Shown: positions 1-4,409 of the stretch, in pieces
How the letters are laid out: every line of letters starts with the position of its first letter
Numbering within the stretch: the stretch's first letter is position 1
Virus record (IMG/VR): IMGVR_UViG_2529292717_000009
Reading direction: 5' to 3' (one strand)
DNA: 4,409 bases
Origin: a virus
Taxonomy: Duplodnaviria > Heunggongvirae > Uroviricota > Caudoviricetes
Translations under genes and position numbers: made by a program
The notes under the pieces: model-generated
What the model was told of the DNA's origin: nothing
The model's input: the letters and a program-made list of their open reading frames with translations, nothing else
Databases searched by the model: none

Positions 1-350
1 CCTGCGATGCCCTGCAGATGGCGCTGTGGCGGCGTAAGAGGCCCCGGAACGTTATCGTTCACACGGACCGTGGAGGCCAGTACTGTTCAGCAGATTATCA
101 GGCGCAACTGAAGCGGCATAATCTGCGTGGAAGTATGAGCGCAAAAGGTTGCTGCTACGATAATGCCTGCGTGGAAAGCTTCTTTCATTCGCTGAAAGTG
201 GAATGTATCCATGGAGAACACTTTATCAGCCGGGAAATAATGCGGGCAACGGTGTTTAATTATATCGAATGTGATTACAATCGGTGGCGGCGGCACAGTT
301 GGTGTGGCGGCCTCAGTCCGGAACAATTTGAAAACCAGAACCTCGCTTAG
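1..350 (+). CDS. insF: IS3 transposase OrfB (InsF-type, DDE integrase core), C-terminal fragment; 5' end beyond the window edge
   Basis: The frame is open from nt 3 ([29 protein letters not shown]...), so the annotated ATG at 18 is internal. It contains the second catalytic Asp context (HTDRGGQY) and the catalytic Glu context ([14 protein letters not shown]) typical of IS3-family DDE transposases. Stop TAG at 348-350. Confidence 0.9.
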
Positions 351-380
351 GCCTGTGTCCATATTACGTGGGTAGGATCA
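342..380. repeat. IS3 right terminal inverted repeat (IRR), about 39 bp, overlapping the 3' end of orfB
   Basis: Terminal sequence ...GGCCTGTGTCCATATTACGTGGGTAGGATCA ends at 380 with CA. It matches the remembered IS3 IR when reverse-complemented. The exact inner limit of the IR is approximate. Confidence 0.7.
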
Positions 381-467
381 TGGAAAAGGCAAGTGTTATT
401 GCAAAACTGCAATCTCTCGGCTTTGTAATTGCTGGTTATGAAGAACTTGCGATCCCTACGACTTAAC

Positions 468-472
468 AAGGA
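468..472 (+). promoter_or_regulatory. Shine-Dalgarno (AAGGA) for the 343-aa ORF
   Basis: AAGGA at 468-472, 8 nt upstream of ATG 481. The in-frame upstream stop TGA at 439-441 prevents any longer N-terminal extension. Confidence 0.6.
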
Positions 473-480
473 AAATAATA

Positions 481-1512
481 ATGAATGATTTATCAACATA
501 TTTTGGCGTTAATACTGCGGTAGTAACTCCATTTGCTTATGAGAATGCACTTAATACCCTGATTACTAATCTCGATCTGTTCGATGTGCAATATCATACA
601 GAAAACAGCATTCTTCTTACCGACCTGATTGATCAGTTTGTGCAGGTAGCTGGGGAAACCTCGCCTTACGCTCAAAGCGACTGGAACGCCTCTAAACGTC
701 AGGAATGGTCAAACAAACTTTTCCAGATGAAACACGTCGGCAGTATTAACGCTGTTACTTCTCGTGACCTGGAACAATACAGCCGCCAATATCCAAACCG
801 TTCTGATGCTATGCTGGTAGCGGTTAATGATTTCTCTGAGGCTCATTACCGTTCACACGCAAACCGTGTTGAAGTGGATCTGATTACCGCGCTGCTGGGC
901 CTGAAAGTTGAATCTGAATATGCCGGACAAGGTGATCTCGACTTCCTCGACGGTCAGGCTAAAACCACGGTACCCGCTATCGACTTTGCATCGACTACTG
1001 TTAACCCGTTCCTTGCTATTCGTAAAGCGGTGCGCTTACAGAGTGAAAAGCTGGGGTCTGGTCTTGCTGCAAAGCGAACTGGTGTAATTATCTTTGCTGC
1101 TGGCACTGCTGCTGATGGTTTGTCATCTAACCCGCTGATCAGTGACATGGTGAAATATGCAGGCGATGCGAGTGCTACGGCCCTGTTTACCCGTATGGTT
1201 GATTCTAACCCAGCCTATGACTCTTTCCAGATTGGTGGGATCACTGTTATTGATGTGTCAATGTTTCCTGAGATTGTTGCTCACATCGGAGAGAACGGTT
1301 TCGCAATTGTTCCGGTAATGGATAAAGCGGCACAGTGTTACCAGCTTCACACAGGCGTTGGTGTGCGTCATGCTGAGTTAGGTCAAGATGCCGTGTTACA
1401 TCACCAATATCTAATCAAGGATGAATTCCAATTCCCATCTGTGGTTACTGAGACATCTTATCTGCCAGTAAACAACATTCCGCAAGCTATCATCTTCGGA
1501 TCTGCTGCGTAA
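481..1512 (+). CDS. hypothetical protein, 343 aa; function unknown (soluble, Ala/Thr/Val/Asp-rich; no Walker A or other catalytic motif seen)
   Basis: Long uninterrupted ORF with ATG start and good SD; stop TAA at 1510-1512 followed by a second TAA. No membrane-spanning segment is evident. Size and composition are compatible with a structural protein (capsid-like), but this is conjecture. Confidence 0.8.
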   Translation: MNDLSTYFGVNTAVVTPFAYENALNTLITNLDLFDVQYHTENSILLTDLIDQFVQVAGETSPYAQSDWNASKRQEWSNKLFQMKHVGSINAVTSRDLEQYSRQYPNRSDAMLVAVNDFSEAHYRSHANRVEVDLITALLGLKVESEYAGQGDLDFLDGQAKTTVPAIDFASTTVNPFLAIRKAVRLQSEKLGSGLAAKRTGVIIFAAGTAADGLSSNPLISDMVKYAGDASATALFTRMVDSNPAYDSFQIGGITVIDVSMFPEIVAHIGENGFAIVPVMDKAAQCYQLHTGVGVRHAELGQDAVLHHQYLIKDEFQFPSVVTETSYLPVNNIPQAIIFGSAA

Positions 1513-1653
1513 TAAAGCATTAATAGACGATTCCCCATAGGGGCAATAAGGGTAAGGGATAATCATATAAGCAAAATATGCGCTGTCTCTTGCCCTTTTT
1601 GTTTTTCTACTGTCTACAAACCCAAATAAAAATATATATGTGAGAGAAAACCA

Positions 1654-1851
1654 ATGAATACAGAAAACCCACAATCCTTTATTCTTAAGGCTGTAAAAGA
1701 ACTGGCAGCTATTAGCGAGGAATCAGTTATAAACACATCGGCGCTTTGCCGCCTTTTAGAAATTGATGCAAATAATGTGCGCCAGCGTGTCTTTCAGACT
1801 GGGTGCAGCACTTTCGAAGCAATTCAATACTATTGCTCTAAAAAACAATAA
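1654..1851 (+). CDS. small hypothetical protein, 65 aa; possible helix-turn-helix DNA-binding protein
   Basis: ATG at 1654 preceded by a weak SD (GAGAG at 1642-1646). The segment TSALCRLLEIDANNVRQRV has the hydrophobic/polar pattern of an HTH recognition unit. The short length keeps confidence moderate. Confidence 0.5.
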   Translation: MNTENPQSFILKAVKELAAISEESVINTSALCRLLEIDANNVRQRVFQTGCSTFEAIQYYCSKKQ

Positions 1852-1870
1852 TAAACAACAATCATAATAC

Positions 1871-1875
1871 AGGGA
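1871..1875 (+). promoter_or_regulatory. Shine-Dalgarno (AGGGA) for the 614-aa ORF
   Basis: AGGGA at 1871-1875, 10 nt upstream of ATG 1886. Only 34 nt separate it from the upstream 65-aa ORF, suggesting co-transcription. Confidence 0.55.
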
Positions 1876-1885
1876 AACAATTAGC

Positions 1886-3730
1886 ATGTTAGAACTTAAC
1901 GTCAGCCGCTTATCAAACGTTGTCACCTTCCAGGTTGATCGACCATCATTAGAGAAAGCAAAAGCAGAAGTAGAAAAACTTCGTAAACAAATGGCGGCTG
2001 TGAAAGATATAGAATTGCGTATTAAGACACATAAACAATCAACCGCTAAAGCAAAAAAAGACGTAGACGATATTGCTAAAAAGCAAGCACAGGCTGATAA
2101 AGCTAATGCTAAAGCACAATTAGCCGCTCAACGTGTAGTTGCAAGAGAACAAAAAGCCCTGGCAGCACGCAAAGAGAAGGCAGAATTAAAGCTTTTAGAC
2201 GTTGGATCAAGCATTAGTGCAATGCACCGTCTTTCTGTAGCGGAACAATATAAAGCTATTGCACAGGCTAGAGAAATTGCCCTCCAATATGAAAGAGGCG
2301 CTATTAGTCTGGCACGTATGAATAGCCAAATGAAACGCCTACAACAGCAACAACGTAAGATTAATGGCAATCGTAACGCTCACGCTAAAGCCTATGCACC
2401 TGTTAAGGGTAGCGGGAGTATTGGCGGCGGTGCTGCGGCTGTTATGCTGGGTGGCTTAGGCGCTGGCGCTACGTATATGGCTATGAGTAAAGCCTCTGAA
2501 TTTGTTACTAACAGCTTTGCGAATGCTGAAACAGAAGGAGAATTAATCCAACGTGCAAGGCTTGGTGGAGTTGATTACAACTTACTTAATAATCTTGAGC
2601 GTTGGGCATATGACAACGGGATCGATAGCCTCCAGGGTGATCAGGGACGCAGAAAAATACTAGATGCCATCGGTAAAGATGTAAAGGAACGCGCTACCAA
2701 AAGCTATGACGAGGCTGAATATGTAGTTGATAAGAAAACTGGTAAAGGAGAATGGAAGGGCGGCGATAGCGGCATCAATACTTTAATGAATGAAGGATTC
2801 TTAACTAAAAAGGATCTAAAAGACTTTGCTGATAATCCGGCTGGTCTGGTTAGTAAAGCAGTTCAGGGAATGGTAGCTAAAGGCTATTCAGATGCACAAA
2901 TCGGTAGTCGTCTGGAAGATCTGGCTGATGATTTGATGCTCACCTCTAAATACTGGACACGCTCCGCTAAAGAAGTGGAACAATCAGCACGAGAACAACG
3001 AGAATCAGGGCGCTGGGTAACACAGGCACAACAGGAAAGCGTTATTAAATTCCGTGAACTGAATAATGCACTTAGTGGGCTTTCTGACTCACAAGGGATC
3101 GCCTTTGTTGATGGCTTTATGAAATCTCTTGATCCGAAAGTGATTGAAGAGTTTAAAAAGAGCATGGTTGCAATGCTGCCAATGTTTACCAAATTAGGCG
3201 AGGCTGTAGGCGGTCTACTTAATGCGATCATGAAAACTATCAACTGGTTGATGAAAAACGACGAGAAGACGGCAGCTATTCAGAAGAATTTAGGGGATGC
3301 ACCGCCACTATCTAACGAAGGAATGAAGCAGAATCTTTCTAATCTCACTCCTGATCAATATAAAGGCGCTGGCACCGGAACAATTAAGCCAGATAACAGC
3401 AATTCCCTGGTTAACACTATTAAAAGCTGGTTTATGCCAGAAGAAACGGTAGGTGGGGCGCAGGCTGTAAATCAATACAGTCTCGAAGGACAAAACATTG
3501 CAAATCTGAAACAGAGTGCAGCACAACAAGCTTTCAAGGCTCCTTCTTACACCTTTGCACCTGTTATTAACTTCAATCCAGAATTACAAGTAAATGCAGA
3601 AGTGCCGCTAACTATCGAATCAGACACCGGACGATTGAGCGAATTTATCGACTTCAAATCAAAGGCATCCTCCGCTGAGTTTAGCAAGCTATTAACGCTG
3701 GGTGTTATGTCAGGCGGGTCAACCTATTAA
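1886..3730 (+). CDS. hypothetical protein, 614 aa: N-terminal Lys/Ala/Gln-rich coiled-coil-like region, single Gly/Ala-rich hydrophobic segment, large C-terminal domain; function unknown
   Basis: Longest ORF in the window, with ATG start and SD. Residues about 20-165 are low-complexity and charged (AKAKKDVDDIAKKQAQADKANAKAQLAAQRVVAREQKALAARKEKAELK). Residues 175-200 (GSGSIGGGAAAVMLGGLGAGATYMAM, nt 2408-2485) are Gly/Ala-rich and hydrophobic, transmembrane-like. Stop TAA at 3728-3730. Confidence 0.85.
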   Translation: MLELNVSRLSNVVTFQVDRPSLEKAKAEVEKLRKQMAAVKDIELRIKTHKQSTAKAKKDVDDIAKKQAQADKANAKAQLAAQRVVAREQKALAARKEKAELKLLDVGSSISAMHRLSVAEQYKAIAQAREIALQYERGAISLARMNSQMKRLQQQQRKINGNRNAHAKAYAPVKGSGSIGGGAAAVMLGGLGAGATYMAMSKASEFVTNSFANAETEGELIQRARLGGVDYNLLNNLERWAYDNGIDSLQGDQGRRKILDAIGKDVKERATKSYDEAEYVVDKKTGKGEWKGGDSGINTLMNEGFLTKKDLKDFADNPAGLVSKAVQGMVAKGYSDAQIGSRLEDLADDLMLTSKYWTRSAKEVEQSAREQRESGRWVTQAQQESVIKFRELNNALSGLSDSQGIAFVDGFMKSLDPKVIEEFKKSMVAMLPMFTKLGEAVGGLLNAIMKTINWLMKNDEKTAAIQKNLGDAPPLSNEGMKQNLSNLTPDQYKGAGTGTIKPDNSNSLVNTIKSWFMPEETVGGAQAVNQYSLEGQNIANLKQSAAQQAFKAPSYTFAPVINFNPELQVNAEVPLTIESDTGRLSEFIDFKSKASSAEFSKLLTLGVMSGGSTY

Positions 3731-3763
3731 TCATCGCTGTGGGGCTGTTTAGCCCCCTTAAAT

Positions 3764-3768
3764 AAGGA
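3764..3768 (+). promoter_or_regulatory. Shine-Dalgarno (AAGGA) for the 87-aa ORF
   Basis: AAGGA at 3764-3768, 9 nt upstream of ATG 3778. Confidence 0.5.
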
Positions 3769-3777
3769 TTACAAATT

Positions 3778-4409
<632 letters not shown>

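Follow-up and report, generated by a model that had tools for sequence, protein, structure and literature searches.

A diverged tape measure protein of the phi92 gp134 family on what appears to be an undescribed phage satellite of Enterobacteriaceae

Introduction

P4 is a satellite of the myovirus P2, about 11.6 kb in size and integrative or plasmid-capable, which alters capsid assembly and has a decoration protein; it encodes no capsid or tail protein and uses the helper cos site and the external scaffold Sid. The PLEs of Vibrio carry a large serine recombinase together with Vibrio-specific replication and interference genes. PLEs also encode their own tape measure protein (TMP), tail assembly chaperone (TAC) and hub, which are respectively 20, 20 and 41% identical to those of the helper ICP1 (Mathur, Boyd et al., Nature 2026, PMC12987554). 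These tail proteins enter PLE particles selectively, the tails of which are 10 nm shorter, and deletion of tmp lowers transduction by 96–99.9% (PMC12987554). Here we analyse a 4,409-nucleotide stretch of viral DNA (Caudoviricetes; IMG/VR record IMGVR_UViG_2529292717_000009), referred to in full length as the window, in which a gene for a 614-aa protein lies among virion-type genes. On homology the protein is close to certainly a TMP of the family of gp134 of phage phi92, and the element that carries it, an island of about 13 kb in Escherichia coli, appears to be a so far undescribed form of phage satellite, the virion module of which is only partial.

For the EPIP satellites of Mycolicibacterium a major capsid protein, head-tail adaptors and a TMP have been reported, with most tail genes missing (bioRxiv 2025, PMC12822802), and some cf-PICIs are reported to have putative tmp genes (PMC12987554, Extended Data Fig. 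10 legend). Cryo-EM of phi92 has identified gp134 as a trimeric TMP with residues 631–656 inside the baseplate, and gp135 as the hexameric tube initiator (PMC13450770). The islands described here are not PLEs, which they resemble in presumed working and not in membership; the two are set apart by the descriptions of PLEs rather than by protein sequence comparison, and the function of the islands is presumed from their genes. What is truly unusual about the locus is its context, namely a TMP gene on a 13 kb island without tube, sheath, portal or terminase genes.

Results

Identity of the 614-aa protein

The open reading frame (ORF) at 1886–3730 on the plus strand, described as a 614-aa protein in an earlier note on this DNA that was made without database searches, has an ATG start and no internal stop; the start is supported because homology to phi92 gp134 begins at residue 1. 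E. coli ETEC-2264 encodes an identical protein (WP_001387928, 100%). Over aa 154–612 the 614-aa sequence matches PHROG 16051, ‘tail length tape measure protein’ (E 2e-29), and its BLASTP alignment with gp134 (659 aa; E 1e-24) of phi92, a Justusliebigvirus, runs end to end through the hydrophobic segment and the central domain, with 45% identity between its first 33 aa and aa 1–33 of gp134. The match to PDB 21vq chain V, which is gp134, has an E value of 1e-18. A tblastn search of 50,697 phage records gave as sole matches the phi92/phAPEC8-group myoviruses of about 145–150 kb (Stephanstirmvirinae), at about 30% identity, and when 1.84 billion cluster representatives were searched exhaustively with HMMER, only 70 relatives were found, of which the full-length ones are all 584–668 aa long. 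Directly downstream of the TMP gene lies a tube-initiator gene, the same order as in phi92. A tape measure or virion-internal protein was one of two roles proposed in the earlier note, and it is the one that the PHROG, BLASTP and PDB matches and the predicted-structure neighbours in BFVD bear out.

The same note had regarded the layout of the protein as unusual and had named confident homology to a characterised tape-measure family as the observation that would speak against its proposal. Homology of this kind was found with gp134, and the layout must therefore be considered normal for the TMP family. Both proteins share homology from first to last residue and the same order of parts (N-terminal 40 aa, helical spacer, Gly/Ala hydrophobic segment, central domain and C-terminal baseplate anchor), and a gp135-type tube-initiator gene likewise follows gp134. 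In contrast to gp134, the 614-aa protein is 45 aa shorter, with only 26% identity, and lacks an Arg/Glu-rich insertion of about 40 aa ahead of the hydrophobic segment; its gene is preceded by a capsid gene and a helix-turn-helix (HTH)-like 65-aa ORF rather than by tube, TAC and gp133 genes, and is carried by a 13 kb integrative island rather than by a 148 kb virulent phage. The protein is a new addition to a known TMP family and, although diverged, is in itself an ordinary TMP.

Sequence features of the protein

The following features were recognized within the ORF (coordinates in the window, strand, feature, basis).

1886–3730, plus strand: TMP homologue of the phi92 gp134 family, 614 aa, uninterrupted ORF (PHROG, BLASTP, PDB and BFVD matches)
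1886–2005, plus strand: N-terminal ~40 aa, the part of the TMP best kept relative to phage TMPs (region-wise identity, BLASTP to gp134)
1940–2392, plus strand: helical, heptad-like, Lys/Ala/Gln/Arg-rich spacer, aa 19–169 (composition, AlphaFold2, heptad test, region-wise identity)
2408–2485, plus strand: Gly/Ala-rich hydrophobic segment, aa 175–200, kept in island and phage TMPs (hydrophobicity, family alignment)
2513–3070, plus strand: helical domain with a beta-hairpin, aa 210–395, confidently folded (AlphaFold2, alignment)
3164–3232, plus strand: second hydrophobic helix, aa 427–449, with invariant G438 and near-invariant G442 (hydrophobicity, alignment, AlphaFold2)
3647–3724, plus strand: C-terminal aa 588–613, aligned without gaps to phi92 gp134 residues 631–656 (BLASTP alignment)

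The first 165 residues are composed of 17% Ala, 13% Lys, 10% Gln, 9% Leu, 8% Arg and 7% Glu. An AlphaFold2 model, for which the input was a 40-sequence family alignment without locus-derived sequences, places helices at residues 19–37, 42–111, 118–136 and 142–169, with a block-mean pLDDT mostly of 60–92. Occupancy of the heptad a/d positions by hydrophobic residues in this N-terminal helical part was 0.69, compared with 0.61 for shuffled sequences (z 2.6; reached in 5 of 500 shuffles). The heptad character that the earlier note had ascribed to about 165 N-terminal residues, rich in Lys, Ala, Gln, Glu and Arg, is real and moderate, and composition and predicted helices agree with that description. 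N11 and D18 are nearly invariant in the family alignment, and the N-terminal ~40 aa are a probable docking site for a helper-encoded partner.

The hydrophobic segment lies exactly where the note had placed it, but it is not the sole one, the second helix at aa 427–449 having been overlooked. The segment at aa 175–200 has a single charged residue among 29 and numerous small-xxx-small motifs, and a hydrophobicity peak occurs at the homologous position in 36 of 37 aligned family members, as part of what is the standard layout of the gp134 family. Its Kyte-Doolittle 19-mer maximum is 1.28, against a classical transmembrane (TM) cut-off of 1.6, and its pLDDT is below 50; it is a plausible candidate for a membrane-inserting element. 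The second helix has a Kyte-Doolittle score of 1.31.

The C-terminal part of about 410 residues had been described as globular, which holds for aa 210–395 (pLDDT ~90) but not for aa 396–614, where confidence is low; the model is confident in two regions only, the other being aa 19–169. Most of the invariant residues of the TMP family sit in aa 210–395 (D260, K264, D265, G293, P318 and E344). Near the C-terminus, 10 of the 26 residues at aa 588–613 are identical to the aligned residues of gp134 (counted by eye). Pfam, NCBIfam and PADLOC searches of the protein gave zero matches and so no enzymatic or defence domain, in agreement with the note's statement that no catalytic motif is recognizable. 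Structure prediction and a fold search had been recommended in the note: the BFVD neighbours are TMPs, whereas Foldseek of the AlphaFold2 model against the PDB returned nothing significant, only generic helical bundles.

The island and its relatives

The chromosome of E. coli strain ETEC-2264 matches positions 379–4030 of the window at 100% identity, and of 5426 complete E. coli genomes 468 (~9%) contain this region. In an intact copy, L002, the genes lie on a 13.0 kb island between 21-bp direct repeats, one formed by the 3' end of a tRNA-Thr gene beside proA and the other just past the integrase, a tyrosine recombinase (PF00589 with DUF6538). At its start this copy has small ORFs, a gene for a winged-HTH protein resembling replication initiators, a stretch of about 1 kb in which no gene is called and a 65-aa ORF, and it continues with a 127-aa ORF, a 343-aa ORF, the 65-aa ORF found at 1654–1851 of the window, the TMP gene, a 225-aa ORF and the integrase. 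The conserved module consists of ORFs of ~65–79, ~115–128, ~342–347 (capsid), ~62–85 and ~600–624 aa (TMP), usually followed by a tube initiator of ~211–237 aa. All island virion-type genes except the HTH-like ORF are homologues of genes for Stephanstirmvirinae (phi92/phAPEC8-like) proteins; in phi92 the same genes are spread over 10 kb, with adaptor, stopper, terminator, sheath, tube and chaperone genes between them, none of which this island has. Pfam and PHROG scans of island ORFs, together with precomputed Pfam assignments for ten-plus loci, revealed no terminase, portal, protease, tube, sheath, TAC, fibre or lysis gene in any copy. The island is not part of a phage; it is a mobile element with few virion genes.

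The module occurs in several settings. In the thrW islands it accompanies a near-identical integrase, TMPs that are 61–69% or 95% identical and capsid proteins of two lineages, and at another E. coli site, close to the secretion genes of ETT2, the integrase is a different one. Contigs of 13.2–13.8 kb from separate sequencing runs, broken at different positions, have no integrase and encode a 492-aa PHROG 2467 protein; L031 (1–13846, Logan SRR31140684_96) and L032 (1–13237, ERR11027388_9174) are considered circular because of exact 30-bp terminal overlaps. A superinfection-immunity gene is present in L004 and L031. A megablast search with a circular element found no equivalent deposited record in plasmid and phage collections. 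Beyond E. coli the module is present in Buttiauxella, Phytobacter, Kluyvera, Citrobacter and Enterobacter, where the TMPs can be as little as 25% identical, and a genome-collection scan run with a 10-sequence alignment placed the hosts in the Enterobacteriaceae. In one relative, L039, there are also genes for an adaptor like gp126 (39%) and a plug like gp136 (59%).

The island TMP gene is maintained by purifying selection, with a dN/dS of 0.10–0.27 among island alleles and stop codons in 0 of 9. Since the conserved module recurs across sites, integrases, circles and genera with such dN/dS values, a random prophage remnant is excluded for the family, which fits a phage satellite. The islands have integration and maintenance functions of their own (21-bp att repeats 13.0 kb apart, integrases and circular contigs) and an incomplete set of virion, packaging and lysis genes, and as the full set is missing the island would be unable to form particles alone. 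Searches of open-access full text, with protein accessions among the queries, found no description of these islands, subscription-only papers being outside that coverage.

Several further observations concern variation among the relatives. In the thrW islands L007–L030 (IMG/VR prophage calls in E. coli isolates) the integrase is 98–100% identical, the alleles of the TMP and the tube initiator diverge by as much as 40%, and the capsid genes come from different lineages; the constant integrase beside diverged structural alleles indicates module swapping within one integration site. The circular relatives have a gene-free stretch of about 2 kb, which in the related contig L004 holds iteron-like repeats, and about a dozen similar contigs of ~13.5 kb were seen across separate runs. 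A 1.5 kb island fragment with the capsid gene and the 65-aa ORF, 96.6% identical, is present on a 166 kb E. coli plasmid (NZ_CP126938.1, 34734–36256).

Island and phage tape measure proteins

Members of the TMP family with a checked gene context fall into two classes. In the island class the TMP is 599–624 aa long and its gene follows the capsid gene and the 65-aa ORF; in the phage class it is 642–659 aa long, its gene is preceded by those for the tube, the TAC (PF21822) and a ~75-aa ORF, and the Arg/Glu-rich insertion of ~40 aa stands just ahead of the hydrophobic segment. Identity between the two classes varies by region:

N-terminal 40 aa: 35–72% identity to phage TMPs in most alleles, 25% in one distant allele
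aa 41–170, helical spacer: 13–22%
aa 206–395, central domain: 24–56%
aa 396–540: 14–19%
aa 541–614, C-terminus: 18–43%

Some E. coli alleles have a phi92-like N-terminus (72%) joined to an island-type body. Conserved ends and a conserved central domain with variable spacers fit the pattern expected if the ends and the domain match helper partners and the spacers give length.

Neighbouring genes in the window

18–378, plus strand: 3' end of an IS3-family element, with IS3 sequence assigned at 18–350, which interrupts the cement-like gene in the closest genome, ETEC-2264 (Pfam and nucleotide matches)
481–1512, plus strand: 343-aa major capsid protein homologue (HK97/Phage_cap_E type), island allele ‘A’ (PHROG, hhalign)
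1654–1851, plus strand: 65-aa ORF between the capsid and TMP genes, kept in every island examined, from six genera (weak HTH-type Pfam matches)
3778–4041, plus strand: 5' third of a tube-initiator gene, phi92 gp135 homologue, Dit_like PF21821 (Pfam, BLASTP, PDB)
4029–4409, minus strand: end of IS100 (IS21 family), with the IstB C-terminus at 4092–4385 (Pfam and nucleotide matches)

The 343-aa protein matches phrog_29 weakly (E 6e-5) and has an N-terminal motif in common with phi92 gp124. When its profile was aligned by hhalign with that of the B/C-type island major capsid proteins, which form a second island capsid lineage, plus phi92 gp124, a probability of 99.4% was obtained over 320 columns (E 5e-21). 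This second lineage matches Stephanstirmvirinae capsid proteins over their full length and carries Pfam Phage_cap_E. Although annotated ‘hypothetical’, the 343-aa ORF encodes a diverged major capsid protein of the HK97 type, and the two island capsid lineages, about 20% identical to each other, are combined freely with different TMP lineages. The 127-aa protein encoded upstream of the capsid gene has the position and size of the phi92 cement protein gp123, with only faint similarity to it. The 65-aa ORF between the capsid and TMP genes was considered as an equivalent of gp133 or of a chaperone, and homology to gp133 was rejected (hhalign probability 0.2%); the ORF may act as a regulator, in packaging or like a chaperone.

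Homology to the tube initiator stops near nt 4028, at the start of IS100, which cuts the gene after about 83 codons; the ORF reads on within IS100 to a stop at 4041. Intact copies encode the full 225-aa tube initiator, which is 50% identical to phi92 gp135 (PDB 21vq chain N, E 2e-54), and tube initiators of other island types are up to 76% identical to gp135. The junction between the tube-initiator gene and IS100 is absent from all complete E. coli genomes searched (5426), so the strain behind the window is not among them. The window copy thus has a cement-like gene broken by IS3, as in ETEC-2264, a tube initiator truncated by IS100 and an intact TMP ORF.

A perfect hairpin, CCCC-ATA-GGGG, lies at 1533–1543 of the window, just 3' of the capsid gene. 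In other islands most intergenic regions 5' of the two small ORFs have a stem-loop with AT-rich sequence after it, and TATAAATA occurs in some of them. These sites could be candidate helper-dependent late promoters. Promoter and terminator scans of the window gave no more sites than shuffled sequences, and neither the window nor one circular element gave a hit in Rfam and tRNA scans.

DNA shared with phi92-like phages

A blastn search with the non-structural half of the island against the phage collection matched phi92-like phages only. A stretch of 242 bp (L002 16771–17012) has ~98% DNA identity to the Justusliebigvirus phages muut and inny (for inny, L058 3001–3624) and encodes a 55-aa protein identical at 52 of 53 residues to inny_185. 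In phage and island alike this gene precedes a related replication-initiator-like gene, the HTH domains of which are 36% identical.

A sequence of 45–77 nt at L002 14825–14901 is 79–96% identical to a region of many phi92-like phages with tiny or absent ORFs; it lies near the record start in Klebsiella phage FKP3, and tandem ATAAATA-type repeats precede the island copy. It was considered as a universal pac/cos mimic and rejected, since only about half of the islands at thrW have it and it is missing from circular and other-genus elements. It is taken as a probable trace of DNA exchange and not as a packaging signal.

Discussion

We propose that the 614-aa protein is the TMP of a satellite of ~12–14 kb in Enterobacteriaceae that builds chimeric tails with a phi92-like helper, and we give this reading a probability of about 0.6. 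That the helper would be a phage of the Stephanstirmvirinae type is indicated, indirectly, by the homology of the structural genes to those of such phages and by the 98% identical gene shared with inny and muut. The chimeric tail is suggested by the PLE precedent, as PLE satellites use their own TMP in their particles. Upon infection by a phi92-like phage, the island would express its capsid/TMP module, and a trimer of the island TMP would dock via its C-terminus in the helper baseplate hub together with the co-encoded hexameric tube initiator. Helper tube and sheath could then polymerise around the island TMP, the N-terminal 40 residues of which would meet helper partners at the top of the tail. 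As island TMPs are shorter than phage TMPs, the chimeric tail should also be shorter, by about 4–9 nm or 1–2 of the 24 rings of phi92 (5–9 nm if 35–60 fewer residues are counted at ~1.5 Å each), and it would join capsids made of the island's own capsid protein. In the next infection the TMP would be expelled first, and its Gly/Ala hydrophobic segments would probably enter the inner membrane and conduct DNA.

A number of points weigh against this proposal. Induction of the island and its packaging and transfer by a phage are presumed, the element being known here from its sequence, and the circular contigs are known from sequencing-run assemblies. The closest phage TMPs are just 26–30% identical to those of the islands, and for this reason the true helper may be outside the phage collection searched. 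No recognizable TAC, of which PLEs have one, and no small terminase or shared pac/cos site was found in the islands; the only short sequence shared with the phages occurs in about half of the thrW islands and is no universal packaging signal. The relatives L052 and L053 are without a tube initiator. The segment at aa 175–200 falls below the usual Kyte-Doolittle threshold for a TM helix and is modelled with low confidence, which makes membrane insertion a candidate role. Finally, the element of the window itself is disrupted by insertion sequences and is probably no longer transferable, because IS3 interrupts its cement-like gene and IS100 truncates its tube initiator.

This disruption, with IS3 and IS100 flanking and cutting the window copy, is what might be expected of an inert remnant of a decayed prophage in which the TMP gene has no present function, and it is also the case that all island genes are annotated ‘hypothetical’ and that the phage relatives have much larger genomes. 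Nevertheless, Stephanstirmvirinae are virulent and no prophage that has the full gene set came to light, and a compact module of 5–7 genes with constant order and sizes recurs, at TMP identities down to 25%, at varied sites, with varied integrases and on circles. Together with the dN/dS values and the lack of stop codons in all nine alleles, this makes a remnant improbable. An assembly-poisoning defence island is less easily set aside, although we still consider it unlikely: the diverged TMP, tube initiator and capsid protein would act as dominant-negative decoys that spoil phi92-like virions, with no transfer of the island. The structural genes are indeed diverged copies of helper parts, their alleles vary strongly beside a constant integrase in an arms-race-like manner, the circular form carries a superinfection-immunity gene, and interference with tail assembly is a known defence strategy (PMC11364771; Rta in PMC12987554). 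However, decoys would not need a full-length, co-adapted set of TMP, tube initiator, capsid and cement proteins kept under purifying selection in six genera, and they would leave the integrases, att sites, replication-type genes and circular forms unaccounted for; PADLOC gave zero matches, and as interference and transfer are coupled in known satellites, poisoning of helper assembly would be a side effect of a satellite rather than a true alternative to it.

The other role raised in the earlier note was that of a membrane-disrupting effector, here a stand-alone toxin in which the coiled coil presents the glycine-zipper segment to permeabilise a target or host cell. The Gly/Ala-rich segment with its small-xxx-small motifs and the second hydrophobic helix would suit such a protein, and TMPs have been described as toxic to express (PMC12987554). 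This proposal is largely refuted by full-length homology to a TMP that structural work has located in the virion, and the hydrophobic segment is a family-wide TMP feature. The gene has a conserved place between the capsid and tube-initiator genes, inside a virion-gene module, there is no secretion system, immunity gene or toxin domain nearby, and no toxin or defence family was matched, so that an effector role has only a very slight chance of being correct.

If the islands are satellites of this kind, their closest counterparts in mode of life are the PLEs. As in PLEs, a small mobile element would depend on a virulent myovirus, the TMP is diverged (~20–26% identical to that of the helper) and shorter than the helper TMP, and the baseplate-proximal partner is better kept (41% in PLEs, 50–76% in the islands). 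PLEs differ in using the helper capsid protein, remodelled by TcaP, whereas the islands have their own capsid and cement genes; they encode TAC and hub, whereas the islands encode a Dit_like tube initiator, sometimes with a plug or adaptor, and no recognizable TAC. The tmp, tac and hub set and the serine recombinase of PLEs were not found in the islands, which have instead a tyrosine integrase at tRNA sites or a circular form, and which have Enterobacteriaceae hosts and other helpers. The islands share with cf-PICIs a size of ~10–15 kb, integration in E. coli and an HK97-type capsid protein of their own, with the rest coming from the helper, presumably so in the islands, but the cf-PICIs have temperate helpers and a complete capsid and packaging module with portal, protease, connectors and small terminase. 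The islands have capsid and cement homologues, plus an adaptor in L039, and they are not cf-PICIs because portal, protease and terminase are missing. EPIPs differ, by description, as actinobacterial, siphovirus-type elements with a serine integrase, a small terminase and a temperate prophage helper. With P4 the islands have in common that both are small, integrative or plasmid-capable elements associated with a myovirus, the dependence of the islands being presumed; P4 differs in encoding neither capsid nor tail protein.

A broader proposal, which we advance more tentatively and hold to be just short of an even chance, is that these elements form a widespread undescribed satellite family of Enterobacteriaceae, made up of tRNA-integrated islands and 13–14 kb circular episomes, that parasitises the virulent ~148 kb Stephanstirmvirinae, supplying capsid, cement, TMP and tube initiator itself and relying on the helper for portal, tube, sheath, baseplate and fibres. 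To date the Vibrio PLEs (2026) are the sole satellites for which assembly of chimeric tails has been demonstrated. If E. coli has another such family, unrelated to the PLEs, takeover of the tail core would be a general satellite strategy; no earlier satellite of E. coli would have had a virulent phage as its helper, and no earlier satellite would have united capsid formation with chimeric tail assembly. The islands would use their own capsid protein too, and the candidate helpers are well studied (phi92, with a full cryo-EM model, and PaulScherrer). The islands would offer a tractable system for asking how a satellite TMP is chosen over that of the helper. Several recurrent ‘hypothetical’ genes of E. 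coli would receive names, and the islands, frequent as they are in genomes of E. coli, could have an effect on therapy phages from the phAPEC8/phi92 group.

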